Assembly (NCBI GenBank): GCA_049325535.1
Contig: JBMOKY010000001.1
Location: forward strand, 877,942 to 941,941
Length of the DNA stretch: 64,000 bases
Source: Patescibacteria group bacterium
GTDB lineage: Bacteria; Patescibacteriota; Patescibacteriia; UBA10025; JAHIVO01
Direction of reading: 5' to 3'
Of this stretch, positions 29,401-61,137 are shown piece after piece (position 1 is the first letter of the stretch; every line of letters starts with the position of its first letter). Made by a program: the position numbers and the translations under genes. The notes under the pieces were generated by a model. That model worked only from the letters and a program-made list of their open reading frames with translations, did not search any database and was not told the DNA's origin.

Positions 29401-32400
29401 CTCTCCGAGGTGAGCTGATGGCTGACGGTCATTTCCCCGCTCCCCTGGGCGGTCATGGTGTAGCTGGCCGTACAGGCCCCACTGTAGCCGGCAGTCAAAT
29501 TATAAAATGTCCAGTTGGTATTCCCGGCGATGGTCGAGGTGTTCTGCACTTCCACGGTGCCGCCGGTCATATTGACGGTGCCATTACCGCTGAAGTCCCC
29601 CAGCACGGTGATATTGCTGGTACCCTGGATAGTGCCGCCATTGGCGGTGATATTCCCCGTCACATTCAGCGCGTTGCTCACCACCAGCGTACCCAGCGTC
29701 ATGGTCACATTGCTATTCACTGTCGTGGCGGAATTCAGCGTCCACTGCCCGCCGGAGCCATTGAACACCACCGTATTCACATCAGCATCCGTGGCGCTCG
29801 TGCTGTCGATGGTTTCGGTAGTGGTTGATTCAAAAGTAATCGTCTCGCTCGCGGCGTTATAATCCCCATTATTATCCCAGGACCCAGATACGGTCACCGA
29901 CGCGGCCGGGGTCAATTGCCCGTTGATTTCCACATCATGCGCTTCGAGCAAATCACTCCCGGTCAAATCCAGATGCGATCCCGACAGGATGCGTAGTTTA
30001 TCATCAGCATACACATCGTCATCGTCGACGGTAAACACCGGGCCATCCAGAGATGTCCAGCAGGAAAACATGATGTCCTCATCATTCACATTTTGATAGG
30101 TCGTCGCCGTACAGTGGCTATCCGTCAGCGTGGGATTGTCATCACTGCCGATAGTCAGTACGTGCGTATCGAGCACCATGCCGGTGATGTGGCCACTGCC
30201 GTCGTAAATGGTGATAGCCGTCGATTCGTTATCATTACCCACGTTATCAATCCATACATAGACCTCATCCCCGGATGACGGAGCGGTCACACCGGAAATC
30301 GTCCAGGTGCCGGAGGAAATCGTGGTCGTGGATCCTTGGAGGGTGCTATTGTACGCGTACCGTACGGTCGCGCCTTCATTGCCATTGGCCGTGCCAGATA
30401 TGGCAAACCCAAAATTCCAGTTCGTATTGGTGCCACAGTTGGTATTGGTGCCGTCATCGGCACCGATCTCACTGCCGCTTGATGCGTCAGACCGGGCCAC
30501 ATCGACATATGAGACAGCCGTCTGGGTTCCGGAAACATTGAGCAGCCACGTGCCGGAGGTCAGATTTGAATTCCGAAATACGATGAAGTTACCTACTGAA
30601 CCCGCCCAATTGATATTATTGACGGTGTACGTAGATCCGGAATTGTACTCTACTTCCACGCTGCCAGTGGTGATAGTGTAGGTGCCGGAGATGGTAGCCG
30701 CGGCTGCGAAATCGATGCTGGGGTTAAAAGACGTGGAGCACCCGGACCATGAACCGGCGGTGTTGGTCAGGATCAGATTATAAAAATTATTAGTCGAGGT
30801 AGTCATCGATCCGGACAATGTCTGCTTGGCAGTTCCGGACAGAGTGACTGTACCGAGATTATCGGTAAACGTACCATTATTGGTGTAGTCTCCTTTCAGG
30901 TCAAACGAACCGGTATTACTCGCTTCCCATACGGTACCCGTACCGATAGTCAATGCTTGAGTAATGGTAAATGTCGGATCGTAGGTATTCACCTGCACGG
31001 TCAGGGTCCCGGCACCCGCCCGGGTAGTGGTCACCCCTCCAGTAATGCTGAACGTGCGGCCGGCGGTATCCCCGAGGGTGATCGTCCGTGATGAAGCGGA
31101 ATTATTATACAGTTCCAAGATTTTACCCGACCCGACAAGCGTCCGGGTGCTGGCGGTGCCATTGACAGTGATGTCATTTGACGTGGCGTCCAGCCGAATA
31201 TTAGCACTGATCGAAGGACTGGCCGGCAGTGTCGATGCCTGGACGATGAGAGTCCCGTCGCCGCTGATGATAGAGGACGAATTATTAGCCAGTGAACCCG
31301 TGCTGGCCACCGTCGCGCTGTATGAACTGGCGATATCCAGCTGGGTAAGAGACGCGATGCTTAAGGTGTTGGTTACGGTCATATTTCCCGCTTGCATGTG
31401 TGCCACAGTTCCAAATCCGGTCAGGGAAAAATTATAAAACGAAGTACCATTTGGATACAGCGCGTCATCATCATCACCATCCATAGCCAGCGTATTGCCG
31501 GACGTGGCAGTATATGTCCCACCGGTGAAATCGACGATGTTGCTCACGGTCCACGTGCCTGTGCCGGAAGTGATAGACTCGCTTCCGCCACCGGTGCCAG
31601 TGAAGTCCAAATCACCGCCGATAGTCACCGTCGGATTATTGGTATTTGCCGCTACCGCCATCGTCTGGGTGCCGGCTGCCAGTACATGAAAATGCGCGCC
31701 TGAACCGGACAGAGTATAGGTGCCCGAGGCCAGGGTGGCCGTGCGCGTCCCGGCACTACTGCTGGAATAAAACTCTACCGGCCCAGCATACGTCCGGGCG
31801 TCGATGGTCGTCGATGCCACATCGCCACTCGTCGCGTCATAGCGAGTGATGGCACTCAAGGTACCGGTCGTCCCCGGACCACCGGCGCCATTCGGATAGA
31901 CTAGCCGTCCCGCACCGGATACCGTGCCATTGAGGGTGGTGTTGGCCGCATTGGTATGGGTCACGGTCCGGTCCGATCCGATGGAAAGCACATCATCAGT
32001 ATCGATATTCAGAGTATTGGTCACGGTCACATCATTCGAGCCGCCGACCGTCACCGTACCGACGGTACTGTCACCGATGGTCAGATTATAAAATGTGGTG
32101 TCGGTGGTGCCATTGATAGCGCCATTGCCCACCAGTTGCACCGTACTGGTACCACCGGTATACGTGCCGCCGTTATTGGTGAAATCACCGGTCACCGCCA
32201 TGGTATTGTCATTGCCATTGAATGTCTTGCCGGAACTGATGATAAATGACCCGGCTAAGTTTAAGGTCTGCGTGGTACTGTCATTAAATTTACTGTCCTC
32301 ATCGACCTGAAAATTATAAAACGAATGTGCCGCTGCCTGCACGTCATAATACGTCCGGGACGAGGAATCACCGCCGCCATTCAGCCCTAAATGCAGCGTG

Positions 32401-35400
32401 CCGCCACTGGGCGCCCCCCCAAGTCCATTACCCGTCACCAGCGTGGCAGTATTGTACACCAGGAAACCCCGAGCATAGAGATGGCCTCCAGTCATATAAA
32501 AATTGACGGTGCCAGGAGTGGTGTTTGCCCATTCCACGATGGCATTGTTCCCGGCATACACGCTGGCACCGGCCAGATAGGTGGTCGACCCGGCGCGCAG
32601 ACGGATATGCGAACTGTTTGCCGTATCGCCGGTGATGGTACCTGCGCTCCAATACCCCGTGCCGCCGGTGGCCTGGTACTCACCAGTAAATATGACACTG
32701 GCGCCAGTATCAAATATCAGCGTTCCGCCGCTGTGAGCGATGGTGCTGCCAGTTCCATTGCCCCAGACATTGACCGCTGTACTGATGGTCGTCGTGCCAT
32801 TGCTGACCAGGAGGTCATCGGCGATATTGATAGTGCCACCAGACAATGTCGTGGTACCGGTAGACGATAAATCTTCAACCAATCCATCGCCAATCGCAAA
32901 TGTGCCTCCGCTTACATTGAGCGTGCCTGTGACAGTGACACCGCTGTCACCATTGGCATTTGTCGAGTTTTGGACATTGAGCGTGGCGCCGGTATCGATG
33001 GTCGTGCTGCCGGCGATGGTATTGGTCGCGGTATCCAGGTACATGGTGGCACTATCATCCACATGCAGCGAACCGGTCCCCTGAGTGGTCACGGTGCCGT
33101 TCGGATCATACGTATCACCGGTCCAGAGGTGCAGTTCGAAATTTGAATCAACCGTCAGATTTGATGAGGCGACGTCGAATTTCACGTCGCTGTCTCCGCC
33201 CTCCCGGTCGCCTGACTCCAGATTCGCATTGGTGATGGATGCCCCATAATCGTTGCGCACGATGACGCGATTTTGGTACAGGTGGGCATTGGTCTGCGTG
33301 GTGCCATCGCTCTTGAATACCGTAGTCGCTTCTTCCGTCTCCTCATCCACAAATATGGTGATGACATCCCCGGCTGAGGCAGTCACGTTTGCTATGGTAT
33401 AGTCCCCGCTCGAGGTTTCTGCCGTGCACGCCCCGCCACCGCACGCGTTCGCATTGCCATTGACCCACAGTACGATGGTCTTTGCCGATGCGGTTATCTT
33501 GGTCGATCCTTCGTCAGAATACAGCGATCCGCCGATGCTGATGCCGCTGGCGGCACCGCAGCCGCTGGCATTGGTACACTCGGCCAGGATCACGTCGAAA
33601 TACTGCGGCTTGTGGTCAGTGCTGGCATTGAACGATGCGGTGATGGTATGCGTGTGGGTGCTACGCGCCACACCAGTGCCAGCAGCCGTACCGCCTGAAT
33701 TGGCGGATGGGGTTCCGGTATTGCCGCTGGTCTGATTGGCCATGCTATGGGTATCGGCTGATTGGGGGGTAGCGGAATAGCTAGATGACCCGCGGATGAA
33801 TTGGCCATTGTACGTCTGGCTGGCGCCAGACACCGTGGTCCAGCCAGTCGGCGGCGCGGCGTCCCACATGGCGATCATATTTTGCGGCACGCTATTGTCC
33901 GCCGTGGCCTGATAGATGAGCGACTGGATGTAGGAAGGTAAAGAGGTATATGAAGTGGAATTGGTAGCGGTAGGCGCGGTATGGGTATGAGTAAAAGATG
34001 CGGACCGGTACGTTGCCAAACCGATATCCTCATCAGCCGAGCCTGATGCGGCGGTCAGTGATCCCCAGGTCAGCGAATGGGTGTGCGTGTTGGCCGTCCC
34101 GCCAGTCGCGTGGGAATTATTTATTTTTACCATGCGGTCGTCCGCGCTACTGAATTGGGACCAGCTGCCGCTGGGTGTGGTATCGAAAAACACAAACGCA
34201 TTATTCGGAATGGTAGTGGGATCTGTGGAATTGCTTTTCCACAGGTAAAACGTGTAATTGAGCGGATCATTATTAGCGCTGCCCACCGTCAGACTATTGA
34301 TCCCATGGGTATGACTGGTCAACGACATGATGGAACAAAAATCAGAGCATCCATGGTCAGATACTTCCGTGGACGGCGCGCTGATAGTCTGGCCGGAGAC
34401 GGTGTGCGTGTGCGATGTCGCACCGCCCGAGGGCGGGGTAGCATCGGTACTGGCCGCACCACGAGGATAGTAGCCATTGTAGGTCGTATCAGTCGTCCAC
34501 CCGGTGGGTGCCGAGCTGGAATTCCCCAGTACAAACATATAGGCCGGATCGATGACCAGCTGCCAGGCGCGCGCCTCCTGCCACTCACCCACCTGCGCCG
34601 GGCCAAAAGCAAATAGTGCCGGACTTTTTTCTGGCGATTTGAATGCATAGGTCAGCTCGGTATCGCTTCCCGCTGCCAGATCCACCTCCCACACGATGGA
34701 ATGCACGATGGCCGACCCGGTGTCATACGGCTCCACGCGCCCGCCCTGACCCGGCTCCACCGTAAATTCACCCGGGATGAGCTCACGTACTATGCCGGCG
34801 AAATCATCGCGCGCATGTACCCGCAGCGTCATCGGCTGAGGCACATTCGGGAAAACGCGGGTGGGACCCTGCCGGGTAATATAATACGCCGGGTCCTCAG
34901 CTACGGTAAACGAATCAGTCAGCCGCCGCTCGTCCCCCTGTACCGCGGCAACGAGCTCCACGCTATATCGCCCGATAACGGTCGGCGTGTACACGGCCAC
35001 ATAGTCCGGTCCCTCGTAGACGTCTTTCACCGAGCAATAGTCGGTGACCGCAATCGACCCATCGGCTGACGACAGGATGGAGACGGTGCCCTGAGGATCA
35101 GTGATCCTGAGCAGCATGTCCGCGGTACAGACGATATGGCCGGTGTCATCCACCGCGCCGAGAGAAAACGTGACGTCCTGCCCGAGCCGGTACTGCGCCT
35201 GGTCGGTATTCATGGCCAGTCCGCCCCAGACAAACTCATAGACGACCTCCTTGGTCCGGCCATCCTGCTCCACTGCCACGGTCACCGAGTATTTGCCCGG
35301 CCGGGTAAATGAACCAGTGCCCACCGTCACCGCTGCGGTCGTGTCACCGCCAGATTCTGATTCGGTGACAGCGATTCGCGCGTCCTGGGTGGTGCCATTG

Positions 35401-36701
35401 GGGTCGGTGATGGCCACGTTTTTGATTTCGCGGGTAGTCGGCTCGACGCCTAAGAATTCGAAATTGGACCCTTCTTTTATAGTGACGTCAATCACCGGCT
35501 GCTCATCCAGGGCGAAATTACCGTCACCCTCCACATCGACAAATGCGGTACTCTCCTCGATCTGCTGGATGACCGGGTCCGGCTCCTGCACCGTCGCCCG
35601 GACGGTCACCCCGTCTATCCATGCCGCCGTGGCTGCGTCCGCCGAGCCAGAAGCAAATGTTGCCCGGAATCGAACTTGGGTGATCTGGGCGATGCTGGTG
35701 ATATCAGGAAGCGGATAGATGAAAAAATCTCCATGAATAGCGTTGCTAAAATTTTCAGTGAGCGCCATCGATTCCAGTGCCATCCAGGTCTGGCCGGCAT
35801 CAGCCGAATACTCCAGTACCAGCACATCATCACTGGCAGAGTCCCCCTGGGCGGCTAATGAAATCGCGAGGGCCACCTCGGAAATAGTAGATGCTGGATC
35901 CACGCTGTCCGGCAGCCGGAACCCGCCAACCGTGAGGATTGGGTCAGAGGTATCCAGCGGCGCATCGGTGACCTCACCGATAGAAGCGGGCTGATCCTCG
36001 ATCACGGTAGTATGCTCTATCTCCACCGGCTGTTGGTCGGCCGGCTGCAATGCGTGGAAATGCGCAGCATTGTCATCGGTGAAATCGCCGATACCCGCCG
36101 TGGGCAGCGCATCGATCTCCATCACTGCCGCAGTCGCATCCCAGCCCGCAGCCGTACTCGGTGCCAGTGTGTATGTCTCTACCGGCGCCTGTCCAGCCCG
36201 AGCCAAATAAATATAGGCAAAGAAGCTGACCTGCACTACGGCAAACGTAAATGCGACGAGGAGGACGGAAAAAATGTATAGGGAAAATTTACGGCTCAAA
36301 AAATACAGCTGGAACCAGCGCCAGGAAAATCCCGGTTTGAGCACGTAGCGATTGTCATCTGATTCCGGCACGACTGGTGCGACAGGCACTACCACGATCC
36401 GCTTGTGCGGCGGCAGCGACTGATAGAAGGAGCGGATCGCTTCACGGTCATATCGTCGGTCCTGCCGGATACCGATGCGGACAGCACGAAGCCGACCAGA
36501 ACGGTCCCAGTTCCGGAGGGTATTTGGGTGCACGCCAAGGATTTCGCTGACCTGCTCTATGGTGAGCAAATGCGGCAGCGAATCAAAGTCTATGGAGCGT
36601 TCCTGTACGGTTGGCGTCTGTTTTTGTTTTTTCTTAAACCAAAACAGCTCCACGAATTTACTTTTTACTTTCGCTTCAATTAGCGAAAAATAATCATTCA
36701 C
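23433..36701 (-). CDS. Giant (4422 aa) surface protein: N-terminal excisionase/MerR-type HTH + TM segment, ~4000-aa Thr/Gly/Ser-rich beta-helix-like repeat region, C-terminal WxL-like domain
   Basis: 13.3-kb uninterrupted ORF with a GTG start at 36701. Residues ~45-95 (LLTIEQVSEILGVHPNTLRNWDRSGRLRAVRIGIRQDRRYDREAIRSF) match the HTH_17/excisionase DNA-binding domain. Residues ~130-165 form a TM helix. Internal repeated modules such as GTRIDLARSSGVGSWNLVVTGTQSVRYANPSNSSACGG recur several times. The C-terminal 160 aa are homologous to the 346-aa neighbour. Confidence 0.6.
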   Translation of the reverse strand: MNDYFSLIEAKVKSKFVELFWFKKKQKQTPTVQERSIDFDSLPHLLTIEQVSEILGVHPNTLRNWDRSGRLRAVRIGIRQDRRYDREAIRSFYQSLPPHKRIVVVPVAPVVPESDDNRYVLKPGFSWRWFQLYFLSRKFSLYIFSVLLVAFTFAVVQVSFFAYIYLARAGQAPVETYTLAPSTAAGWDATAAVMEIDALPTAGIGDFTDDNAAHFHALQPADQQPVEIEHTTVIEDQPASIGEVTDAPLDTSDPILTVGGFRLPDSVDPASTISEVALAISLAAQGDSASDDVLVLEYSADAGQTWMALESMALTENFSNAIHGDFFIYPLPDITSIAQITQVRFRATFASGSADAATAAWIDGVTVRATVQEPDPVIQQIEESTAFVDVEGDGNFALDEQPVIDVTIKEGSNFEFLGVEPTTREIKNVAITDPNGTTQDARIAVTESESGGDTTAAVTVGTGSFTRPGKYSVTVAVEQDGRTKEVVYEFVWGGLAMNTDQAQYRLGQDVTFSLGAVDDTGHIVCTADMLLRITDPQGTVSILSSADGSIAVTDYCSVKDVYEGPDYVAVYTPTVIGRYSVELVAAVQGDERRLTDSFTVAEDPAYYITRQGPTRVFPNVPQPMTLRVHARDDFAGIVRELIPGEFTVEPGQGGRVEPYDTGSAIVHSIVWEVDLAAGSDTELTYAFKSPEKSPALFAFGPAQVGEWQEARAWQLVIDPAYMFVLGNSSSAPTGWTTDTTYNGYYPRGAASTDATPPSGGATSHTHTVSGQTISAPSTEVSDHGCSDFCSIMSLTSHTHGINSLTVGSANNDPLNYTFYLWKSNSTDPTTIPNNAFVFFDTTPSGSWSQFSSADDRMVKINNSHATGGTANTHTHSLTWGSLTAASGSADEDIGLATYRSASFTHTHTAPTATNSTSYTSLPSYIQSLIYQATADNSVPQNMIAMWDAAPPTGWTTVSGASQTYNGQFIRGSSSYSATPQSADTHSMANQTSGNTGTPSANSGGTAAGTGVARSTHTHTITASFNASTDHKPQYFDVILAECTNASGCGAASGISIGGSLYSDEGSTKITASAKTIVLWVNGNANACGGGACTAETSSGDYTIANVTASAGDVITIFVDEETEEATTVFKSDGTTQTNAHLYQNRVIVRNDYGASITNANLESGDREGGDSDVKFDVASSNLTVDSNFELHLWTGDTYDPNGTVTTQGTGSLHVDDSATMYLDTATNTIAGSTTIDTGATLNVQNSTNANGDSGVTVTGTLNVSGGTFAIGDGLVEDLSSTGTTTLSGGTINIADDLLVSNGTTTISTAVNVWGNGTGSTIAHSGGTLIFDTGASVIFTGEYQATGGTGYWSAGTITGDTANSSHIRLRAGSTTYLAGASVYAGNNAIVEWANTTPGTVNFYMTGGHLYARGFLVYNTATLVTGNGLGGAPSGGTLHLGLNGGGDSSSRTYYDVQAAAHSFYNFQVDEDSKFNDSTTQTLNLAGSFIISSGKTFNGNDNTMAVTGDFTNNGGTYTGGTSTVQLVGNGAINGTTDTTFYNLTIGDSTVGTVTVGGSNDVTVTNTLNIDTDDVLSIGSDRTVTHTNAANTTLNGTVSGAGRLVYPNGAGGPGTTGTLSAITRYDATSGDVASTTIDARTYAGPVEFYSSSSAGTRTATLASGTYTLSGSGAHFHVLAAGTQTMAVAANTNNPTVTIGGDLDFTGTGGGSESITSGTGTWTVSNIVDFTGGTYTATSGNTLAMDGDDDDALYPNGTSFYNFSLTGFGTVAHMQAGNMTVTNTLSIASLTQLDIASSYSATVASTGSLANNSSSIISGDGTLIVQASTLPASPSISANIRLDATSNDITVNGTASTRTLVGSGKILELYNNSASSRTITLGDTAGRTFSITGGVTTTRAGAGTLTVQVNTYDPTFTITQALTIGTGTVWEASNTGSFDLKGDYTNNGTFTDNLGTVTLSGTAKQTLSGSMTTSTNNFYNLILTNTAGSWSGCSTSFNPSIDFAAAATISGTYTITTGSVEVEYNSGSTYTVNNINWAGSVGNFIVFRNSNLTSGTWLLNVSGTQTAVSYVDVARSDASSGSEIGADDGTNTNCGTNTNWNFGFAISGTANGNEGATVRYAYNSTLQGSTTTISSGTWTISGVTAPSSGDEVYVWIDNVGNDNESTAITIYDGSGHITGMVLDTHVLTIGSDDNPTLTDSHCTATTYQNVNDEDIMFSCWTSLDGPVFTVDDDDVYADDKLRILSGSHLDLTGSDLLEAHDVEINGQLTPAASVTVSGSWDNNGDYNAASETITFESTTTETIDSTSATDADVNTVVFNGSGGQWTLNSATTVNSNVTMTLGTLVVSNALNVTGNITANGGTIQGTSNITVLGDFSGNGTVNMTGGTVEVQNTSTIAGNTNWTFYNLTAGYSGACTASYTMTAQGSGEMTVSHQLTSESCSCGMECAYYARLATGDKIWHFTGSGTGTGAPTYGLNISSWGASTFSFEGTAATDVYGGTLYNLRLDPASGTPSYTLNGGSLYGDLYIDTLVSFSHTSGTALQMAGDGKTIDAGGKTFYRVYVNGTNNTVTVANTDFTTSNYLIVSSGSTLTINSGRSVTTGSPLWLSDGTINGAGLLVFTDTANLDAGGTLDVDVRLDATAGPVDDTLFVARAYGGDLELYNNSGGSRLFEAGAGTLTVSGNFSSNSPSGSNLVEMTPPTVTITGSFTLPSGDSLQGWSSMSIGGNMSVDGNFSSGTATITLNGTSTQTITGTLTGVNSFYDLIVTNASVGGVVFSSSTDVDGTFTATTANTNLGFVGGTTHTWVNININGQAVGTRIDLARSSGVGSWNLVVTGTQSVRYANPSNSSACGGDSIRAYDGTSNDGGSNNCWIFTGVTVSGAIYSDQGSTLYNCSANNITIHGATNGESADTATCTSGDGTFSISVLPPSSAGDPIILYIDSGESIQANFVTLAADTSSAITGARLYDNWIIVRHENAGPMTNADMLAADNGDAGVIYYDAGYLQLDSGRNLLLWSGDSFDPGGKINTGGGSQLYLEDGSEMWFDAGTTYFSGGITIANVLSDPAALHVDATSMTSTVTVNGTMDGTGDFTILSSLTGNGTVAMTGGTMTFPYTSTIGGAEDWSFSSMEFTHASCGSKTSSFTGAGSFTFSGTLTTDTCFNLETWTHVIDPNDKLIILTMSSGTPMDAILAGQPVNNSIVRYTGTSVTVDNSFYSTLQLQPSSSTTYTLQSAVTTIVYSNMTVNSNVTLSAGTSTLYVGGASVTLDLNDETLYNLDVYPSGTGTVTVQNTDFSVSNTMTVDTSDTLSIPSGRTVTLNSTGSLTLNGVISGAGRLAYRPATAFPTTGTISSILRFDCTNNNTIMSDRTYGGDVEFYMPGGASRQVTIGTAGSQTPDITGNLTLINSDFDFLLTADASGYDPSVTIGGDFSNNGAGGITTIGAGAGTWTVGGDVELTRGQFIPDTGSTLIMNGTGTLFVDNVYGSDTSPYNFQTSGSGTITLDDPMTVSNDMVVGSGTTVTGAQNLTVTGGDITGDGILNLTAGTLTIPSTSGSFGGDTAWSINNFHLSSTTQCADRITTATGTGQMTVTGVITTDAVYDPLEICGCTEESCYGHALHAGSKTWVITQGGTGGSRPVINNGRIVGNTSTFRYTGEVATDIQSLSNYSYYYNLHVQPSGGATPAYTFTSPTANSITHDLVVGDGSHNVHLNAASNNAVITVGNDLSCTAGASTNSVTTGTATWTVTGNTTLSNCDTFTATAGHTLLMNGASKVITSGGKTLSNFQVGVGSVSSADAMDVNGTFTVSSGSFTHHASSNLNVAGDFTIASGATFNPATSGLLILDGDLTYADNRVTQTSVGDVHIGTSPDTTDLATDMTAKSLTINDGDVFNTHGYDLDIGIGGITIAADGGSGGGRLDVDDDVETDGTYMATDGKFDLQSGAQLNNSDGTNVGSTLAFTIPATAVSDVTSDLITAGTGNPYDLVIDDGGGTYDLTVEIEDPLTVENDITITDGILDTKSTESNAITIGGDWTNADTFTSQLATATFTGAAKPGGTIYIDSSGAQCAACDDFFHVVLNDSANGDTFQLESNLDVNGNLTITGGTLDTKNLSNYSVYLAGNWTNNDIFEARSGTVTADGINQQTFSGTMTGASAFYNLTITNSSGSNPETSPSVIFSAAAETDNNFTATTANTKLRFNAGSTYTFQNISFNGQATGTRVFLRSSSTGTQWDIHVAGTRSVSNTNVRDSDACGQAPDIDASNGTNFDATNNDCWLINSMSFSISDTTIGFGSLSATQDRYATGDGTGSDTEVQAHTLAAATSGGGGYSIDIDGTTLTSGAGDSIDYIGGTNTASQTGTEQYGIRATASGGSGSVSAPYADAGFAYDLINFPDTFATSAGASSTTTYSVRYMSNISSQTEAGNYTSNITYIITPEF

Positions 36702-55082: not shown

Positions 55083-55107
55083 CATTCAGTATACACTCGT
55101 CACTCAG

Positions 55108-55168
55108 GCCGCCGTGGTGGAACTGGTAGACACGCACGACCTGCCTGCCGGCAGGCAGGCTCAAAATC
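55108..55168 (+). pseudogene. Duplicated 5' half of tRNA-Leu(CAA) interrupted by a 20-nt perfect palindrome; no 3' half
   Basis: 55108-55140 is identical over 33 nt to tRNA-Leu 55428-55460 (GCCGCCGTGGTGGAACTGGTAGACACGCACGAC). Next comes CTGCCTGCCGGCAGGCAGGC (palindrome 55140-55159), then the anticodon-loop sequence TCAAAATC. After that the sequence diverges into the GIY-YIG gene. Confidence 0.7.
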
Positions 55169-55188
55169 CCATGGAGCCAATCGCCAAC

Positions 55189-55422
55189 ATGTACGTCACC
55201 TACGCAATTAAGAGTCAAACAAAAAAATACCTCTACGTCGGACTTACCAATAATTTGACGAGGCGGTTAAAAGAACATAATCAGGGTCAGAATAAAACCA
55301 CAAGACCCTACAGGCCATTCAAGCTCGTTCTCCAGGAAACATATCAATCGCGAATTGAAGCAAGAAAACGAGAAAAGCAATTAAAAAGTGGGTACGGAAG
55401 AGAATATTTGAAAAAATTGTGA
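55189..55422 (+). CDS. Small GIY-YIG nuclease (YhbQ/UPF0213-like)
   Basis: The ORF is called from 55114, inside the tRNA fragment. Plausible starts are ATG 55171 (MEPIAN...) or ATG 55189 (MYVTYAIKSQTKKYLYVGLTNNLTRRLKEHN...). It carries the GIY (YVTY) and YIG (LYVGLT) motifs plus the conserved Arg and Glu, in a 77-83 aa protein like E. coli YhbQ. Confidence 0.8.
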   Translation: MYVTYAIKSQTKKYLYVGLTNNLTRRLKEHNQGQNKTTRPYRPFKLVLQETYQSRIEARKREKQLKSGYGREYLKKL

Positions 55423-55427
55423 CACAT

Positions 55428-55512
55428 GCCGCCGTGGTGGAACTGGTAGACACGCACGACTCAAAATCGTGTGAGGCGACTCATGTCGGTTCGAGTCCGA
55501 CCGGCGGCACCA
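55428..55512 (+). tRNA. tRNA-Leu (anticodon CAA), long variable arm, CCA encoded
   Basis: The sequence reads GCCGCCG-TG-GTGG-AACTGGTAGA-CACG-CACGA-CTCAAAA-TCGTG-[TGAGGCGACTCAT]-GTCGG-TTCGAGT-CCGAC-CGGCGGC-A-CCA, a type II tRNA. Confidence 0.85.
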
Positions 55513-55856: not shown

Positions 55857-56747
55857 ATGCATACCCGTGCCTCACGAACGCCTATCGGCATCCTCATATA
55901 CACCCATGATCGAGTGGAGGATGCCCGGATTAATATGGATATCATCCGGAGTCTCTGGCACCATGCTGGGTTATTTTCGAATGTACGGATCGTCCACGCA
56001 TACAATGGGAAACGCAGCTGGTATCCCGAAAAATACCGGGAGGATATCGTGGTGAGAATAAAAAATACTGACCACTACCGTGGAGCGGCTGAACTCATCG
56101 ACGCAGGATGGTACGCGGTACGGCGGCACTATCCCGGCATCCGATACCTGGTGATTCTCGCGGCGGACACGTGGTGCATCAAACCCGCCTTTATCCGATC
56201 GATAATTGACCGAATGCAGCGCCAGCAAACGGTTTGGGCTACCTGCCCCTGGGGTCTGCCCGGCCGCTTCCGAGAAACCAATGTAGGCATGGCCACTGAT
56301 TTTCACATCGTGGACGTGGCCTGGGCAAACCGTTATGGATTTCTCCCGCTCCGGTACCGACAATTCTGGAATCAGTACCACGAAATAGTTTCATACCTCA
56401 GGCCCGGTGCCAATGTGTCAGTTGAAAAGCTGGCGCTGGCCCGATTTCACGATGCCTGCTTTCGTGAACACGGTGATGCCATTCACCGCAAAGAACAGGC
56501 TCGTCGTCGCACGCAGCTGATTACCGAACGCATGCCCGTACACTCCGGAAAAGACCGCCGAGGGTACTGGATTCGTTCCTGGTACTGGCCGCGCATCGGA
56601 CTGGTGACGCACCACCAACCAGGACCAAAACGAGTAATTCTCCGCCGCACAAAAAATATCTCTGGCTACGCGGTTGAAAAGCTCTTGCATGCCAAACGCC
56701 TCGACTACTACCAGACGTTTGCTACGACGAGGCAGTCATATGATTAG
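55857..56747 (+). CDS. Hypothetical Trp/Arg-rich cytoplasmic protein, no recognisable family
   Basis: 296-aa ORF with host-like GC and no TM helix or signal peptide. The N-terminal segment IGILIYTHDRVEDARINMDII...YLVILAADTW is vaguely nucleotide-binding/GT-A-like. It lies between the tRNA cluster and lgt. Confidence 0.5.
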   Translation: MHTRASRTPIGILIYTHDRVEDARINMDIIRSLWHHAGLFSNVRIVHAYNGKRSWYPEKYREDIVVRIKNTDHYRGAAELIDAGWYAVRRHYPGIRYLVILAADTWCIKPAFIRSIIDRMQRQQTVWATCPWGLPGRFRETNVGMATDFHIVDVAWANRYGFLPLRYRQFWNQYHEIVSYLRPGANVSVEKLALARFHDACFREHGDAIHRKEQARRRTQLITERMPVHSGKDRRGYWIRSWYWPRIGLVTHHQPGPKRVILRRTKNISGYAVEKLLHAKRLDYYQTFATTRQSYD

Positions 56748-57420
56748 GATGAGTAACGCGACGCCGTCTCGCCCAAAACACGATCGCCACGGCAATAAAC
56801 AGCAATGAAAGCCACTGTGACACGAGTAATGGGCCGACGTGCAGCATGCCCAGGCGGAGAAAATCTAAAAAAAATCGAACGCTTGGAAACAGCAAAAAAT
56901 ACAACAATACGTATTCGCCGGTACGAAGCGATTGCCGCCAGTACAGGAAAAACAACACACCGAACACGACCGCCATCAGCAGTGACTCGTAGAGAAAAAG
57001 CGGATGGAAATGGGTTGCGGTGACGTACCCCGGCAGGCGGTACGCTGGCTCTATCGGGATCGCCCAGGCCACGTCCGTCGGCCCACCATATAATTCTTGA
57101 TTAAAATAATTCCCCCACCGACCGATTGCCTGGGCTAGCGGAGCGGCCACCGCCAATATGTCCGCGATGCCCCAAAAAGCAAGCCGGTGGCGCCGCGTAT
57201 ACCACCAGAGCGTCAATATGTCGGCGATGAGTACCCCCTGGATGGCGATGCCGCCCCGCAGAAAAGAATCAAGAGTTTTTCTGATCGCCAGAGGCGGATC
57301 CGCTGTAGGAGAAAAAATAGGTTCTAATTTGGTTGTAAAGCAATACCAACGCAAACTTAAGTCGGCTTTTTTCGGCGTGACTAAAATACACACCCTGCAA
57401 TCAGTATAAACAGAATACAA
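56722..57420 (-). pseudogene. lgt: 5'-truncated lgt paralog (prolipoprotein diacylglyceryl transferase fragment); called N-terminal 54 codons derive from low-GC island DNA
   Basis: From 57259 leftwards it encodes the Lgt core and C-terminus, including the GRWGNYFNQELYG signature. It lacks the N-terminal ~90 aa (two TM helices) present in the full copy at 58751..59539. Upstream of 57260 the reading frame continues into AT-rich unrelated sequence. Confidence 0.65.
57063..57259. repeat. 197-bp perfect direct repeat (copy 1) shared by the two lgt genes
   Basis: 57063-57259 is 100% identical to 59071-59267. Identity decays gradually on the 3' side (about 85-90% for a further ~80 bp) and stops abruptly at 57260. 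Confidence 0.9.
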
Positions 57421-57425
57421 ATCGC

Positions 57426-58049
57426 CTATTTGCTATCCGCAACTACCTGTTCAAGTTTATTCTGATAACTATCAAGGCTAGTTTCAACGGCACCATCTTC
57501 ATGATTGATTCCGCGCACAACTCCATTCTCTATTGATAACTTGCCGAATGAGCCGTAATTAACATAGTATTCACCGACGATGCCTTCTTGATCTACCTGA
57601 CCAAGAAACAAAATGACACTTTCTGACTCCTCAAACGATGGAATATTCATACCCCAATACCACGCCTCCTCCGTTTCCCCTCCCTCAACTGCCACCGTTA
57701 TCTCCTTTCCGACCTTTATGTTTTCATTACTTTTATAGATTTTCTCCAATTTCAGGACAACAGAATGATACACTTCGCCTTGCGCTGTCTTATACGGTTT
57801 TTCAATTTTCTGGACTTGGCCTTGCACGATAATATCCGCTTGAGTAGCAATATTTGTAGTACTCGGATCGTTGGGTAAAAGACCGCTGATTTCAACCGAT
57901 GTTTTTCCTAAAAAATCAGTAGGTATGCGCTGCTGTAGATATGAATTAATTTCCTCTGCGTTTTCCTTTTGATCTAATTTCCACCAAATACCAACGCCGA
58001 TGAATAATATGATAAGGAACAATGGAATTACTAAATATTTTTTATTCAT
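57426..58049 (-). CDS. Hypothetical membrane-anchored protein (island cargo)
   Basis: 207-aa ORF with an N-terminal TM helix (YLVIPLFLIILFIGVGIWW) and a beta-rich ectodomain. The gene is AT-rich. Confidence 0.5.
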   Translation of the reverse strand: MNKKYLVIPLFLIILFIGVGIWWKLDQKENAEEINSYLQQRIPTDFLGKTSVEISGLLPNDPSTTNIATQADIIVQGQVQKIEKPYKTAQGEVYHSVVLKLEKIYKSNENIKVGKEITVAVEGGETEEAWYWGMNIPSFEESESVILFLGQVDQEGIVGEYYVNYGSFGKLSIENGVVRGINHEDGAVETSLDSYQNKLEQVVADSK

Positions 58050-58082
58050 ATATTATTTCTGTTACTTATAAAGTCAATCAAG

Positions 58083-58664
58083 CTAATAAATATAGTTAAT
58101 CCCATTAATATCGTCTCCTGCTAAAGTCCGCTTCCGAGTTTCACCCTCATAAGTAGTATAATACATGGTATCAAAAAAATCCCAATCGTTATACTGATCC
58201 CCAAGAACCAACCAGTGGCCAAACTCATGCGTAGTAACATTCCTGACATCATACATATCAGGCTCTCCACAGCACCCCCAGTCATATTTTGTATTAATAA
58301 TTAAGTCAACCTCAGTCAGAACTGAACCAGATCGACTTACAATATAAGTCTTTGCAACATCATCAAAGCTGCGATAATATCTCGAAACAGTATTCTTTCC
58401 ATCTCCCATATATAGAACATTATTCCCTTTAAACACAAACCGAAATGGTGACCCCGCAAAGCTCCAGGTGTCACCAGGAGCTGTTATTAAATTTGGATCC
58501 CAGCCAGCGATGTCATTATAGAATTCAGCCCTCGCGCCGCTCCAATAATAGCCGCCGTAGGTATAGGCCTCCCCGTCACCTGCTGGCACAAGAATAACAC
58601 CCAGTAAAACTAATATCGGCAACAAAAAAATCAACAATATACCTCTGCTTGAGATTTGTCGCAT
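58083..58664 (-). CDS. Secreted metzincin-like zinc metalloprotease (matrixin/snapalysin-like; HEFGHWLVLGD)
   Basis: 193-aa ORF with a signal peptide and an HExxHxxGxxD zinc site (the third ligand is Asp, as in M7 snapalysin). A Met-turn candidate DTMYY is present. The C-terminal GDDINGINYIY resembles the MMP DDxxGIQxLYG segment. Confidence 0.6.
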   Translation of the reverse strand: MRQISSRGILLIFLLPILVLLGVILVPAGDGEAYTYGGYYWSGARAEFYNDIAGWDPNLITAPGDTWSFAGSPFRFVFKGNNVLYMGDGKNTVSRYYRSFDDVAKTYIVSRSGSVLTEVDLIINTKYDWGCCGEPDMYDVRNVTTHEFGHWLVLGDQYNDWDFFDTMYYTTYEGETRKRTLAGDDINGINYIY

Positions 58665-58750
58665 ATATATTGATATATCAACTTAATAATAGCCCATTCC
58701 TGTAAAAAAAAATAATGACGACTTATCCACAGAGCTCATTACTAAATTAA

Positions 58751-59539
58751 TTAACCCTTACGCCTACTGCGACGGTACCACCACAATCCGATTGCACCAA
58801 TAATAAATGCAATACTAATCCACTGCGACAAGAGCAGCGGGCCCACCGCCAACATATCAATCCTCAGGAAATCCAACGAAAACCGAACCACGGGAAATAG
58901 CATAAAGTACAACAAGGTATATTCACCAGGTCGTAATGCTTGTTTGCAATATAACACATACATAACAATAAACAACTCCAGCATCAAGAGTGACTCATAG
59001 AGAAACAGCGGATGAAAATGGGTTGCGGCGGCGTACCCCGATAGGCGGTATGCTGGCTCTATCGGGATGGCCCAGGCCACGTCCGTCGGCCCACCATATA
59101 ATTCTTGATTAAAATAATTCCCCCACCGACCGATTGCCTGGGCTAGCGGAGCGGCCACCGCCAATATGTCCGCGATGCCCCAAAAAGCAAGCCGGTGGCG
59201 CCGCGTATACCACCAGAGCGTCAATATGTCGGCGATGAGTACCCCCTGGATGGCGATGCCGCCCCGCCAAAGCGCGGGGATCGCCCCTGGATTGGAACTG
59301 TAATATGACCATTCACCGATGATATGGCCGATGCGCCCACCAATCACACCAAAAACCAACAGCCAAAACAAGAGGCCATACATGTAGTCAAGCGATACAC
59401 CGCGTCGCACGAACCAGAACCGCGCCACCGCTAGTGCGGCCAGAACAGCGCCCGCGATGATAATTCCATACCAGGACAAGGTAAAAAACCCCAACTGAAA
59501 CGCCACGGCGGAAGGGCTAAACGTATGCCACCAATCCAT
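58751..59539 (-). CDS. lgt: Prolipoprotein diacylglyceryl transferase (full length)
   Basis: 262-aa ORF with 7 predicted TM helices, the Lgt signature GRWGNYFNQELYG and N-terminal MDWWHTFSP...LSWYGIII. Its 3' ~300 nt is low-GC. Confidence 0.9.
   Translation of the reverse strand: MDWWHTFSPSAVAFQLGFFTLSWYGIIIAGAVLAALAVARFWFVRRGVSLDYMYGLLFWLLVFGVIGGRIGHIIGEWSYYSSNPGAIPALWRGGIAIQGVLIADILTLWWYTRRHRLAFWGIADILAVAAPLAQAIGRWGNYFNQELYGGPTDVAWAIPIEPAYRLSGYAAATHFHPLFLYESLLMLELFIVMYVLYCKQALRPGEYTLLYFMLFPVVRFSLDFLRIDMLAVGPLLLSQWISIAFIIGAIGLWWYRRSRRKG
59071..59267. repeat. 197-bp perfect direct repeat (copy 2) inside the intact lgt
   Basis: Identical to 57063-57259. Confidence 0.9.
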
Positions 59540-59560
59540 ATGGTACGCGCCCGTCTGCCG

Positions 59561-60313
59561 CTAGAGCAGGCTGTCGATCATGGTCTGGAAGCTGCTGAAG
59601 GGAACCGCTCCAGAAACCAGCTGGCCATTGACAAACGTCGCCGGCGTCCCCTCCACGCCATAGGCTACCCCCGAATCAAATGAATCCTGAACTTTTTGCG
59701 CATACGTGCCCGTATCGAGACAGGTGTCAAATGTTGTTTGATTAAGCCCCAATTCACCGGCAGCCGATTTGAAACTATCCACGCTCAAAGAACCGGCGTC
59801 ATTCAGGGCAAAAAGTTTATCATGCATTTCCCAAAATTTACCCTGCGCCGCGGCACACTCTGATGCCTCAGCTGCTTTTTGAGCATTCTGGTGGAATGAC
59901 AATGGAAAATGACGGAAAATCACTCGCACCTGATCTGGATATGCGTCGAGGATCTGTTCGATTGTCGGCGTATGCCGAGAACAATACGGACACTCAAAAT
60001 CAGAATACTCCACGATGGTAATAGGCGCATCAGCCGCACCACGGATATGATCCTCGTCAGTGATGACAATATCCACCGGGGCCGGAGCGGCAGTATTGGT
60101 TCCCGCTTGGTCAGTATCATCTACGCCGGCAACGATGCCCACATTTGAATTTGTAGTTTTCGACGGAGCATCATCTCCACGGAGCGCCGCGAGCGTTACG
60201 CCAAATCCGATAGTGGACAGCACCGCGACACCAGCCAGGATGCCCATGGCAAAAGCAACCTTGGGAGAGGTCCGATACACGACACGTTCCGACATTCCTT
60301 GTTGATCGTTCAT
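59561..60313 (-). CDS. DsbA-family thiol:disulfide oxidoreductase (membrane-anchored, CPYC active site)
   Basis: 250-aa ORF with an N-terminal TM helix, a thioredoxin fold carrying FECPYCSRH, and the DsbA helical insertion (GKFWEMHDKLF). Confidence 0.85.
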   Translation of the reverse strand: MNDQQGMSERVVYRTSPKVAFAMGILAGVAVLSTIGFGVTLAALRGDDAPSKTTNSNVGIVAGVDDTDQAGTNTAAPAPVDIVITDEDHIRGAADAPITIVEYSDFECPYCSRHTPTIEQILDAYPDQVRVIFRHFPLSFHQNAQKAAEASECAAAQGKFWEMHDKLFALNDAGSLSVDSFKSAAGELGLNQTTFDTCLDTGTYAQKVQDSFDSGVAYGVEGTPATFVNGQLVSGAVPFSSFQTMIDSLL

Positions 60314-60456: not shown

Positions 60457-61137
60457 CTAATTGAGAACCTTCAGCTGGTCAATAATTTGCGCGAACTGAT
60501 CGTAGGTAATCGAGCCGGTGAACGGCCGACCATTGATGAAAAAAGTAGGCGTGCCAGTCACCCCCGCGGTCAGGCCATCGATAAAATCCTGCTCTACTTC
60601 AGCGGCAAACTGCCCCCCGTCCAAGCATTGATTAAATAGCTCCGTATCGAGTCCGATTTCATTGGCATATTCCTTCAGCGCGTCCACCGCCAAATTATCG
60701 TGATTCAGGAACATCTTATCATGCATCTCCCAAAACCTCCCCTGCGCTTGCGCGCACTCTCCCGCTTCAGCAGCTTTTCGCGCGTTCGGATGTGAACTGT
60801 CAATCGGGAAATCCCGATAGACAAAATAGATGTCTTGGCTGTAATTATCCAATAGCTGCCGAACTACCGGAAACGCCTGAAAACAGAACGGGCACTCAAA
60901 ATCAGCGAATTCAACTATCACAATTTTTGCCTGAGGATTGCCGCTCGACGGGTCGTCCTCCGTGGCAAATGTGGTAGTGCCGCCTTGGTTGCTGTTATTG
61001 ATAGAATCAACATTTTGCCGAACGAGCATGTAAAAATAAATCACCCCAATGACGAGGAGAATGGCGATGATGAGTATAATATAAAACCACCGTCGGTACG
61101 GGTTGCGGGAAATAGGTGATCCGGGTTGGATGGTCAT
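60457..61137 (-). CDS. DsbA-family thiol:disulfide oxidoreductase paralog (CPFC active site)
   Basis: 226-aa ORF with an N-terminal TM helix, FECPFCFQAF and GRFWEMHDKMF. It is a tandem paralog of the 59561..60313 gene. Confidence 0.85.
   Translation of the reverse strand: MTIQPGSPISRNPYRRWFYIILIIAILLVIGVIYFYMLVRQNVDSINNSNQGGTTTFATEDDPSSGNPQAKIVIVEFADFECPFCFQAFPVVRQLLDNYSQDIYFVYRDFPIDSSHPNARKAAEAGECAQAQGRFWEMHDKMFLNHDNLAVDALKEYANEIGLDTELFNQCLDGGQFAAEVEQDFIDGLTAGVTGTPTFFINGRPFTGSITYDQFAQIIDQLKVLN

Follow-up and report, generated by a model that had tools for sequence, protein, structure and literature searches.

How did a member of the Patescibacteria come to carry two copies of lgt, one intact and one truncated, on either side of a small low-GC island? 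The question arose from the 64,000-nucleotide stretch of DNA analysed here (the window), in which positions 57062-57259 and 59070-59267 form an exact direct repeat of 198 bp at an offset of 2008 bp. One repeat copy lies within the intact lgt and the other within a 5'-truncated lgt remnant, with ~1.8 kb that holds two low-GC genes between them. The parts of the locus are as follows.

59561..60313, minus strand: DsbA-like thioredoxin-fold gene upstream of lgt (Pfam Thioredoxin_4/DSBA)
59279..59752, minus strand: D1, dsbA 3' end, spacer and lgt codons 1-87, window-only
58751..59539, minus strand: chimeric lgt, intact, encoding 262 aa (full-length Pfam LGT match, 206.7 bits)
59070..59267, minus strand: C1, repeat copy in the intact lgt, codons 91-157, host-like
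58983..59069, minus strand: D2, intact lgt codons 158-186, ~11-13% diverged, host-lineage-like
58751..58982, minus strand: F, new lgt tip, codons 187-262 (nucleotide and amino acid comparison)
58665..58750, minus strand: spacer from the lgt stop to the protease gene, AT-rich, 25.6% GC
58083..58664, minus strand: cargo gene 1, matrixin-like zinc protease, 193 aa, secreted or membrane-anchored (Pfam Peptidase_M10)
57426..58049, minus strand: cargo gene 2, the partner, 207 aa (neighbour conservation and predicted fold)
57260..57425, minus strand: insert tail, 166 nt, 39.8% GC
57062..57259, minus strand: C2, copy of the exact repeat with which the remnant begins
56722..57259, minus strand: displaced lgt remnant, ancestral codons 91-269 (Pfam and strain comparison)

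Both lgt copies matched Pfam PF01790. The intact gene (58751-59539) covered profile positions 2-240 with 206.7 bits, whereas the open reading frame at 56722-57420 covered positions 79-239 only and is therefore a fragment; the remnant lacks the first 90 codons of the ancestral 269-aa Lgt, and its frame is still open. The product of the intact gene is identical to P0002 (NCBI MFZ6036428.1), encoded on a 1.148-Mb contig of a metagenome-assembled genome (MAG), and the 210-aa remnant product (P0136, MFZ6036425.1) is labelled lgt on the same contig. The public record, which lists two lgt genes of which one is a 5'-truncated remnant, is thus an annotation trap. In the alignment with Escherichia coli Lgt (5azb, residues 11-260), which includes GRWGNYFNQELYG and VRFSLDFLR, the chimeric Lgt has the GRxGNxxNxExxG signature and the C-terminal R-x3-[ED]-x2-R motif; in this alignment the catalytic motifs are kept.

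An earlier note on this DNA had described a perfect 197-bp repeat whose identity ended abruptly on one side and decayed gradually on the other. The exact direct repeat is real, with a corrected size of 198 bp, and so is the abrupt edge: past 57260/59268, on the 5' side as read along the minus-strand gene, the match drops sharply to 5-9/30 nt. On the 3' side, however, the fall was stepwise (27/30, 27/30, 24/30, then 16-21/30), and the supposed gradual decay resolved into two steps, a block of ~13% divergence over codons 158-186 followed by ~40% divergence from codon 187 onwards.

The existence of the arrangement was further assessed with independent assembly data. Logan contig L001 (SRR32167788), 1870 bp in length, matched window 57230-59099 exactly, and both island-repeat junctions are therefore present in the SRR32167788 reads. 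L001 ends 30 nt inside each repeat copy, and by itself it fits the integrated form and a circle plus an empty site equally well. The locus could thus be an assembly artefact or a mixed consensus, in which an uninterrupted lgt was combined with a separate 2-kb circle or with another strain's locus, or in which the contig switched between strains: the 198-bp repeat is longer than short-read k-mers, the breaks of L001 within both copies mean that the graph permits host5'-R-host3' plus a circle, the source MAG is metagenome-derived, and the mosaic pattern of D1 could in principle reflect an assembly switch among co-occurring strains with no biological crossover. We nevertheless regard this as quite unlikely, since an independent read assembly contains both junctions, since the abrupt tail-core junction must be real DNA, and since three variants are common to both repeat copies and absent from six strains with an empty site. 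Moreover, the second repeat copy runs straight into host-type sequence, the contig is 1.148 Mb long, and a circle of 2 kb that lacks a replication gene is implausible as a stable replicon.

Six conspecific Logan contigs from different runs share the synteny of the window (SOD-ferredoxin-DsbA-DsbA-lgt), and each holds a single uninterrupted lgt of 269 aa; P0001, P0137 and P0138 are Lgt proteins of these empty-site strains. Against a background identity of 99.6% between the window and the six strains, the remnant was 99-100% identical to their lgt 3' end over codons 158-246 and 96% identical over the last 23 codons, whereas the 3' end of the intact gene showed 60% identity to the host type. Furthermore, P0001 was 97% identical to the host 5' part, the core and the remnant 3' part taken together, and the occupied site has lost no recipient DNA compared with the empty one. 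As the single lgt 3' end of the six strains matches the remnant, the arrangement arose by an insertion specific to this strain, which pushed the original lgt 3' end aside. The comparison thereby confirmed what the earlier note had proposed, namely an insertion into lgt, a replacement 3' end on the intact gene that is foreign, and the old 3' end left behind as a remnant; the two-copy arrangement, looked for in relatives, was present in none of the six strains.

The opposite order of events, in which an ancestral two-copy arrangement gave rise to the single-copy strains by deletion, is highly improbable. Recombination across the 198-bp direct repeat would indeed yield a single full-length lgt, but such a deletion would keep the D1 allele of the window, and all six single-copy strains share a different allele over 59752-59279. 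In addition, a more distant Kerfeldbacteria MAG, which shares the synteny, has one lgt and lacks the cassette.

The foreign tract is not confined to the insert. Positions 59268-59752 are 92.8% identical to the six empty-site strains, as opposed to the 99.6% background, and 59752-59279 (~480 bp) contains 37 differences from these strains, mostly unique to the window and mostly synonymous. Lgt codons 1-90 include 18 synonymous and 4 non-synonymous codon changes, and the last ~190 bp of dsbA (from 59752) carry window-specific donor-type variants, with 10 synonymous and 2 non-synonymous codon differences in dsbA against L017. On the other side of C1, the D2 block (59069-58983) of the intact gene is diverged at the level of D1 (77/87 identical to the remnant, 12 variant sites against the six strains, host-like GC of 0.54), and the remnant has exactly the allele of the strains. 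C1 itself differs from the six strains at 3 sites, all three of which are also found in C2. The divergence of this repeat copy from the strains is significantly lower than that of its flanks (3/198 vs. 49/563, Fisher p = 2e-4), which points to conversion or crossover in the repeat and not to an att core. In L016, window-type alleles occupy a short stretch (59523, 59450, 59443 and 59441), indicating that such alleles recombine within the population.

The earlier note had interpreted the insert as an element integrated into lgt. Of this, the insertion stood and an element with att sites did not: a small integrative element composed of lgt core, replacement 3' end and cargo, inserted site-specifically, with its integrase lost or acting in trans and the repeat as attL/attR, is unlikely. 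It would explain an insert flanked by direct repeats, the replaced 3' end of the target and the empty site in relatives, and an F-type tip on the different lgt core of the Kerfeldbacteria MAG is as expected of a travelling tip; that locus, however, has neither cargo nor remnant. Because the ~480-bp D1 tract upstream of the repeat, reaching dsbA, differs from the six strains, simple integration at the repeat was rejected, and an integrative element leaves the donor-type tract 59752-59279 unexplained. An empty site reconstructed as flank, one att copy and flank also fails, as both 59752-59279 and 59069-58983 differ in the six strains. The right edge of the repeat is the point at which the remnant switches to the host allele inside 89% homologous sequence, with no recognisable core site. 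A Pfam scan of 33 ORFs of the window gave no recombinase, integrase or transposase, and the island carries none, in agreement with the previous remark that no integrase remains. Moreover, homologues of the protease and the partner elsewhere occupy unrelated contexts, and the cassette is absent from viral contigs (IMG/VR). Elements and prophages that insert into gene ends likewise have direct repeats at their ends, an element-borne 3' end that reconstitutes the target and an empty site in relatives. Unlike them, the present insert has no integrase and consists of 1.8 kb with two ordinary genes, its flank outside the repeat is also donor-type, and the cassette was seen at lgt in no other genome. 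A duplicated gene end on both sides of an insert does not necessarily signal an integrase-type element.

The GC content was 39.5% in the unique insert (57260-58982), 61% in the repeat, 50-55% in the flanks and 53.2% in the whole window, which bears out the low-GC island of ~1.8 kb. Codon usage gave a divided result, in that the cargo genes are foreign and the low-GC lgt 3' end is near the host in GC3. The new lgt 3' end (43.5% GC) is low mostly at codon positions 1 and 2 and has a GC3 of 0.51, whereas host genes have 0.53-0.60 and the two cargo genes 0.38; on these values, only 57260-58750 is clearly foreign in composition. Over codons 187-246, the F tip showed 60-62% nucleotide identity to the host tip, but 78-88% nucleotide identity and 56/60 identical amino acids to lgt of the Kerfeldbacteria MAG GCA_016214565.1, whereas the remaining parts of the two lgt genes, that of the window and that of the MAG, are 50-68% identical. 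The Kerfeldbacteria lgt likewise falls in GC at codon 187, and its locus combines the same synteny with a single lgt bearing an F-type tip. The insert tail meets C2 at the abrupt junction 57259/57260, and its 166 nt showed no resemblance to the lgt 5' region or the remaining window. By sequence comparison, the insert is a mosaic of three sources, with D1 and D2 host-lineage-like, F Kerfeldbacteria-like and the cargo of low GC3.

The island holds two genes, which are overlapped by its remaining ORFs of at least 50 aa, and its Pfam matches are the peptidase and a weak DUF. The protease matched Peptidase_M10 (PF00413, MEROPS M10) with 26.5 bits at a gathering threshold of 24, and its profile matched the catalytic domains of MMP-9 and MMP-8 in the PDB (E about 1e-6). 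In its zinc-site sequence, HEFGHWLVLGD, compared with HExxHxxGxxH, the third ligand position is Asp and the Gly is shifted; Met167 is invariant in the family alignment, and the AF2 model, at a pLDDT of 43.5, was too poor for use. The partner, whose gene always adjoins the protease gene in other Patescibacteria, has an N-terminal transmembrane helix and no cysteine; it gave no Pfam or PDB sequence match and belongs to no known family. Foldseek matched its AF2 model (pLDDT 62.8) to the agrin NtA, TIMP-1 and PCOLCE NTR domains in the PDB with E of 1.6e-4 to 1e-3, at TM 0.4-0.63 and an rmsd of about 5 Å, which is a modest likeness. The predicted core thus modestly resembles TIMP/NTR-type OB folds, and assignment of the partner as a TIMP/NTR module was ruled out, given that it has no cysteine, no sequence match and only this modest fold likeness. 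Neither the protease nor the partner was found beside lgt in 80 GTDB lgt loci.

Some metzincins form pairs with adjacent proteinaceous inhibitors, such as serralysin AprA with AprI/Inh and MMP with TIMP. The cassette is similar in placing a putative M10-type HExxH...Met-turn protease beside a small, beta-rich protein with a predicted TIMP/NTR OB-like fold. In contrast to the inhibitors of such pairs, the partner has no cysteines or free N-terminal Cys and no TIMP/I38 sequence similarity. The partner may be a putative inhibitor of the protease, according to a model of moderate confidence, and the protease with a partner of possibly TIMP-like fold represents an uncharacterised module of Patescibacteria.

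Our preferred reading, to which we assign a probability of about 0.6, is that the host's own homologous recombination brought in ~2 kb of DNA of a diverged relative, perhaps through one illegitimate join, and that this DNA, which is not a self-mobile element, displaced the lgt 3' end. DNA of the diverged relative would have entered the cell, plausibly by natural transformation, which has been shown experimentally, via homologous recombination, in Saccharibacteria, with com genes conserved across the CPR (PMC10633639). The window encodes DprA (TIGR00732, 260 bits, cut-off 191), as well as PilM and a T2SSE ATPase. The incoming DNA, from ~59752 down to 57260, would have comprised a mosaic lgt allele followed by the two-gene protease/partner cassette, with one end anchored by homologous recombination in dsbA/lgt. 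The other end would have met the resident lgt at codon 91 by one of two routes: a direct join of the kind known from homology-facilitated illegitimate recombination, or a second crossover inside a partial lgt duplication already present in the donor, comparable to the circular or repeat-bearing intermediate proposed for rhs. Resident codons 91-269 would thereby have been shunted downstream as a promoterless remnant, and the 198-bp identity would reflect gene conversion or crossover between the copies, the abrupt edge of the tract being the end of homology and its other edge stopping within sequence that is still homologous. What we infer from the arrangement is how the DNA entered, in what order the events occurred and that a conversion step took place; this recombination history rests on a single genome of one strain of an uncultured species. 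The model requires at least two steps (import and conversion) or a donor with a prior duplication, and also a donor lgt that was already mosaic. Neither a donor lineage nor a second instance was found in the protein database, 80 GTDB lgt loci, 80 JGI lgt-tip loci or IMG/VR.

Import by host recombination has close parallels in the displacement of rhs, cdiA and T6SS effector tips. In rhs C-terminal displacement, which involves no recombinase, the core fragment that has become dissociated is identical to the one still attached (Jackson et al., 2009, PMC2935791), and T6SS effector displacement was ascribed to homology-facilitated illegitimate recombination (Kirchberger et al., 2017, PMC5361080). 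Common to these systems and the present locus are a conserved 5' part that is kept while a new 3' tip and downstream cargo are gained, an old tip located downstream on a fragment of core identical to that of the intact gene, incoming DNA with its own GC signature, the lack of a dedicated recombinase, and the possibility that recombination between core copies reactivates the displaced tip; the mechanisms proposed for them are homologous recombination via a repeat-bearing or circular intermediate and homology-facilitated illegitimate recombination. As in rhs, the cores are identical here, over 198 bp, with ancestral codons 91-269 as the remnant, and the F tip on the Kerfeldbacteria lgt core provides a single example of one tip on different cores. 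Unlike rhs, cdiA and T6SS genes, lgt is a single-copy housekeeping enzyme with one displaced tip and no array, its cargo is a protease and partner and not a demonstrated toxin/immunity pair, and the host is a Patescibacteria MAG with one known instance. A polymorphic toxin with immunity cargo was ruled out, as the gene is lgt (PF01790 and the E. coli Lgt alignment).

Homology-facilitated illegitimate recombination in transformation has been described by de Vries and Wackernagel (2002), Prudhomme et al. (2002) and Meier and Wackernagel (2003), as cited in PMC5361080, and is a further subject of PMC3240628. The locus resembles these events in its diverged-homology anchor (59752-59279), its non-homologous abrupt joint at 57259/57260 and the competence-associated DprA in the window. 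Classical events, in contrast, delete recipient DNA between anchor and joint. In the present locus the joint coincides with the anchor's end or lies behind it, and the target gene thus keeps a 3' portion as a partial duplicate; a later conversion step would be needed for perfect identity.

The insertion is reversible through the 198-bp repeat, since recombination between its two copies would remove 2008 bp and leave a full-length lgt of the host type. The locus offers a well-resolved case, backed by mapped breakpoints and the empty site of six conspecific strains, of an ultrasmall, probably competent bacterium that has probably gained accessory genes by host recombination. More speculatively, and with a rather low likelihood, Patescibacteria may routinely gain small cassettes, of which the present one may be a matrixin with a TIMP/NTR-like inhibitor, by means other than mobile-element machinery, with the conserved cores of essential genes (lgt and possibly the neighbouring tRNA-Leu) serving as homology anchors for end displacement driven by transformation and a spare gene end left behind that makes the gain reversible.

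Two copies of lgt were delimited in the window. The intact gene and a remnant ORF share an exact run of 198 bp (57062-57259 = 59070-59267, offset 2008 bp), which the earlier note had recognised as a perfect repeat and sized at 197 bp. Identity between the copies was lost at once towards the gene 5' end, as that note described, and fell stepwise, not gradually, towards the 3' end.

Features of the lgt locus
58751-59539, minus strand: intact lgt (262 aa; Pfam LGT 206.7 bits, profile positions 2-240)
58083-58664, between the repeat copies: matrixin-like protease gene (193 aa)
57426-58049, between the repeat copies: membrane-anchored protein, here the partner (207 aa)
86 nt, between the repeat copies: AT-rich spacer
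57260-57425, between the repeat copies: insert tail (166 nt)
56722-57420, minus strand: lgt remnant ORF (Pfam LGT profile positions 79-239 only)

The intact Lgt is identical to MFZ6036428.1 (P0002), from an NCBI Patescibacteria MAG contig of 1.148 Mb, and the 210-aa remnant product (P0136, MFZ6036425.1) is likewise annotated as lgt. The intact protein, a chimera, aligned end to end with its E. coli counterpart; both the signature motif and the C-terminal R...D...R motif are retained, and it is probably functional as far as its sequence indicates. A promoter and terminator scan of 56600-59700 performed no better than shuffled sequence, and Rfam returned three tRNAs and nothing else.

A hypothetical ancestral Lgt, assembled from the host 5' part, the core and the remnant 3' part, was used as a query and recovered proteins of 269 aa that are 97% identical to it (P0001 and, of the same cluster, P0137 and P0138). 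Their genes lie on six Logan contigs, assembled from different runs, which carry the Suf-SOD-ferredoxin-DsbA-DsbA-lgt synteny and a single uninterrupted lgt. Since the six contigs were 99.6% identical to the window outside the locus, an empty site exists in conspecific strains, confirming the proposed insertion in lgt and supplying the uninterrupted relative that had been sought. Furthermore, the remnant corresponds to the lgt 3' end of these strains (99-100% identity over codons 158-246 and 96% over the last 23 codons), in agreement with the view that the original 3' end was left behind. Derivation of the six strains by deletion was rejected, because their allele upstream (59279-59752) is unlike that of the window.

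The window was then compared site by site with the six strains. From 59752, inside dsbA, to 59279, 37 differences were found, mostly unique to the window and mostly synonymous, and identity over 59268-59752 was 92.8%. Codons 158-186 of the intact lgt (59069-58983) showed 12 differences from the strains, whose allele is matched exactly by the remnant. Between these two diverged blocks, the repeat showed only three differences, all in both copies, and the heterogeneity of divergence was significant (3/198 in the repeat vs 49/563 in the flanks, p = 2e-4). One empty-site strain (L016, SRR8357215) carries a short patch of window-type alleles in the lgt 5' region, at window positions 59523, 59450, 59443 and 59441, which shows that recombination of the divergent allele takes place in this population.

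An artefact of assembly or of strain mixing is quite unlikely. The three repeat variants occur in both copies and are absent from the empty-site strains, and independent evidence for the junctions was obtained: a Logan contig from SRR32167788 matches window 57230-59099 exactly and ends 30 nt into each repeat copy, so both junctions are present in reads, although the contig graph alone does not prove the integrated topology.

From codon 187 onwards, the intact lgt shares only about 60% identity with the host type, consistent with the claimed replacement 3' end. This new tip showed 78-88% nucleotide identity and 56/60 identical residues to the lgt of a Kerfeldbacteria MAG, GCA_016214565.1, whose gene is 50-68% identical to that of the window elsewhere and lacks both cassette and remnant. 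Tandem duplication followed by divergence was rejected in view of the identity steps (100%, 89%, 60%) and of this kinship of the tip. In the Kerfeldbacteria gene itself (L004 10001-10807), GC drops from 0.54 before codon 187 to 0.46 after it, at the same breakpoint as in the chimeric gene and at the conserved HPLFLYESLLM motif; the tip may have been exchanged repeatedly among these lineages. The low-GC island of the earlier note holds for the unique insert as a whole (57260-58982, 39.5% vs 53.2% for the window). Codon-position analysis restricted the low GC3 to the two cargo genes (0.38), whereas the tip (0.51) is close to host genes (0.53-0.60). Taken together, the two diverged blocks, the Kerfeldbacteria-like tip and the cargo-only low GC3 indicate, at the level of sequence, that the foreign tract is a mosaic of at least three sources, reaching about 480 bp past the host-like repeat.

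These results do not support a decayed integrative element with the repeat as att sites, because divergence continues past the repeat, the repeat is host-like and no recombinase was found. The last point had been noticed before: no recombinase is encoded within the island, and a Pfam scan of 33 window ORFs gave no match to integrase or transposase families. An integrase-type element mobilised in trans would account for that absence; it found no positive support and is unlikely. No donor was found in the protein database, GTDB, JGI or IMG/VR searches. GTDB species genomes scanned with the chimeric Lgt gave only relatives of <=53% identity, with no second lgt fragment and no cassette at 80 lgt loci; JGI metagenomes scanned with the new tip gave matches of <=47%; and IMG/VR scanned with protease and partner alignments gave nothing. 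Exact-protein look-ups of the intact lgt and the window DsbA allele also returned no match.

The cargo was characterised by sequence and structure comparison. The protease scored above the Pfam M10 threshold, it matched MMP catalytic domains in the PDB, and its motif HEFGHWLVLGD places Asp at the third-ligand position; the Met is invariant. The partner family is small (40 cluster representatives in 1.84 billion proteins); the protein has zero cysteines, belongs to no sequence family and gave no Pfam or PDB sequence match. Its AF2 model (pLDDT 62.8, moderate confidence; core mostly 75-90) resembles TIMP/NTR-type OB folds, with TIMP-1/-2, agrin NtA, the PCOLCE NTR domain and complement C345C domains as best PDB matches (Foldseek E 1.6e-4 to 1e-3). 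That the cargo may be a bacterial protease/inhibitor pair is an attractive idea suggested by this model. A functional connection of the cargo with Lgt was rejected, since the N-terminal regions of both cargo proteins lack a lipobox cysteine.

Protease and partner are also conserved as a two-gene module elsewhere in the Patescibacteria, where the surroundings are unrelated: flanked by a 23S_rRNA_IVP gene and ssb, adjoining a LAGLIDADG ORF, or as two tandem copies in GCA_964415025.1 (L100 6310-9220). It adjoined lgt in none of the other Patescibacteria loci examined, nor in the 80 GTDB lgt loci. Island DNA matched the closest cassette locus, L007, in coding regions only (67%), with no flank homology. 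The three loci closest to the window cassette each carry a free-standing LAGLIDADG-like ORF immediately downstream, on the other strand (1.3e-8 in our own scan for L007; a faint precomputed match only for L100 and L101).

Partner homologues and LAGLIDADG-like ORFs in comparison loci
L007 979-1599: partner homologue
L100 8600-9220 and 6908-7486: partner homologues
L008 8606-9217: partner homologue
L012 8627-9226: partner homologue
L007 2136-2786: LAGLIDADG-like ORF
L100 9628-10305: LAGLIDADG-like ORF
L101 1732-2409: LAGLIDADG-like ORF

Several neighbouring features were also recorded. Less than 2 kb from the lgt duplication lies a second gene-end duplication around an insert, that of the 5' half of tRNA-Leu(CAA) (55099-55512): 55108-55140 repeats, without mismatch, the beginning of the genuine tRNA (55428-55512); next come a perfect palindrome of 18-19 nt (CTGCCTGCCGGCAGGCAG) and the sequence of the anticodon loop. 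The partial and intact tRNAs are separated by an ORF for a GIY-YIG nuclease (55114-55422, Pfam 62.5 bits); syntenic Kerfeldbacteria loci have the tRNA-Leu and gave no tblastn match to this gene. A 296-aa ORF (55857-56747, plus strand) converges on lgt, overlapping the remnant 3' end by 26 nt. It has no convincing family (weak NTP_transf_3 match). Those conspecific strains whose contigs run on beyond lgt have it (L002 and L003 at full length), and the syntenic Kerfeldbacteria loci lack it. The Logan contigs L016, L017 and L019 all stop 4 nt past the lgt stop codon, which suggests that strains vary at this very point. Tandem DsbA-like paralogues (59561-60313 and 60457-61137), kept in all relatives examined, form repeat families spaced about 900 bp apart at 72-75% identity. 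Two giant minus-strand ORFs, 4553-12745 (2730 aa) and 23433-36701 (4422 aa), presumably encode surface proteins and lie among genes with TSP3, Big_7, cohesin and dockerin domains.

The pattern at lgt fits import mediated by host recombination, with displacement of the gene 3' end. Homologous anchoring would have been provided by the diverged tract that runs from dsbA into the lgt 5' region, 57259/57260 would be the non-homologous joint, and resident lgt codons 91-269 would have been shunted downstream. For the perfect repeat block, the best reading is a tract of conversion or crossover, which would be bounded by the end of homology on one side and have stopped within homologous sequence on the other. 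The duplication may have arisen by a one-sided illegitimate join in this lineage, or may already have been present in the donor and been brought in by two homologous crossovers. The window encodes DprA, PilM and a T2SSE ATPase. Saccharibacteria have been shown to take up DNA by natural transformation and to integrate it homologously, and conservation of com genes extends throughout the CPR (PMC10633639).

The same topology is seen in rhs C-terminal displacement, where the dissociated core fragment is identical to the attached one and the proposed mechanism uses recombination only, via a circular intermediate (PMC2935791), and in T6SS effector displacement, which has been explained by homology-facilitated illegitimate recombination (PMC5361080). 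A recombination event between the two repeat copies would remove 2008 bp and restore a host-type lgt. The lgt locus of the window offers one clear case of a recombination footprint of a known kind, of modest interest, in an unusual host and an unusual gene.
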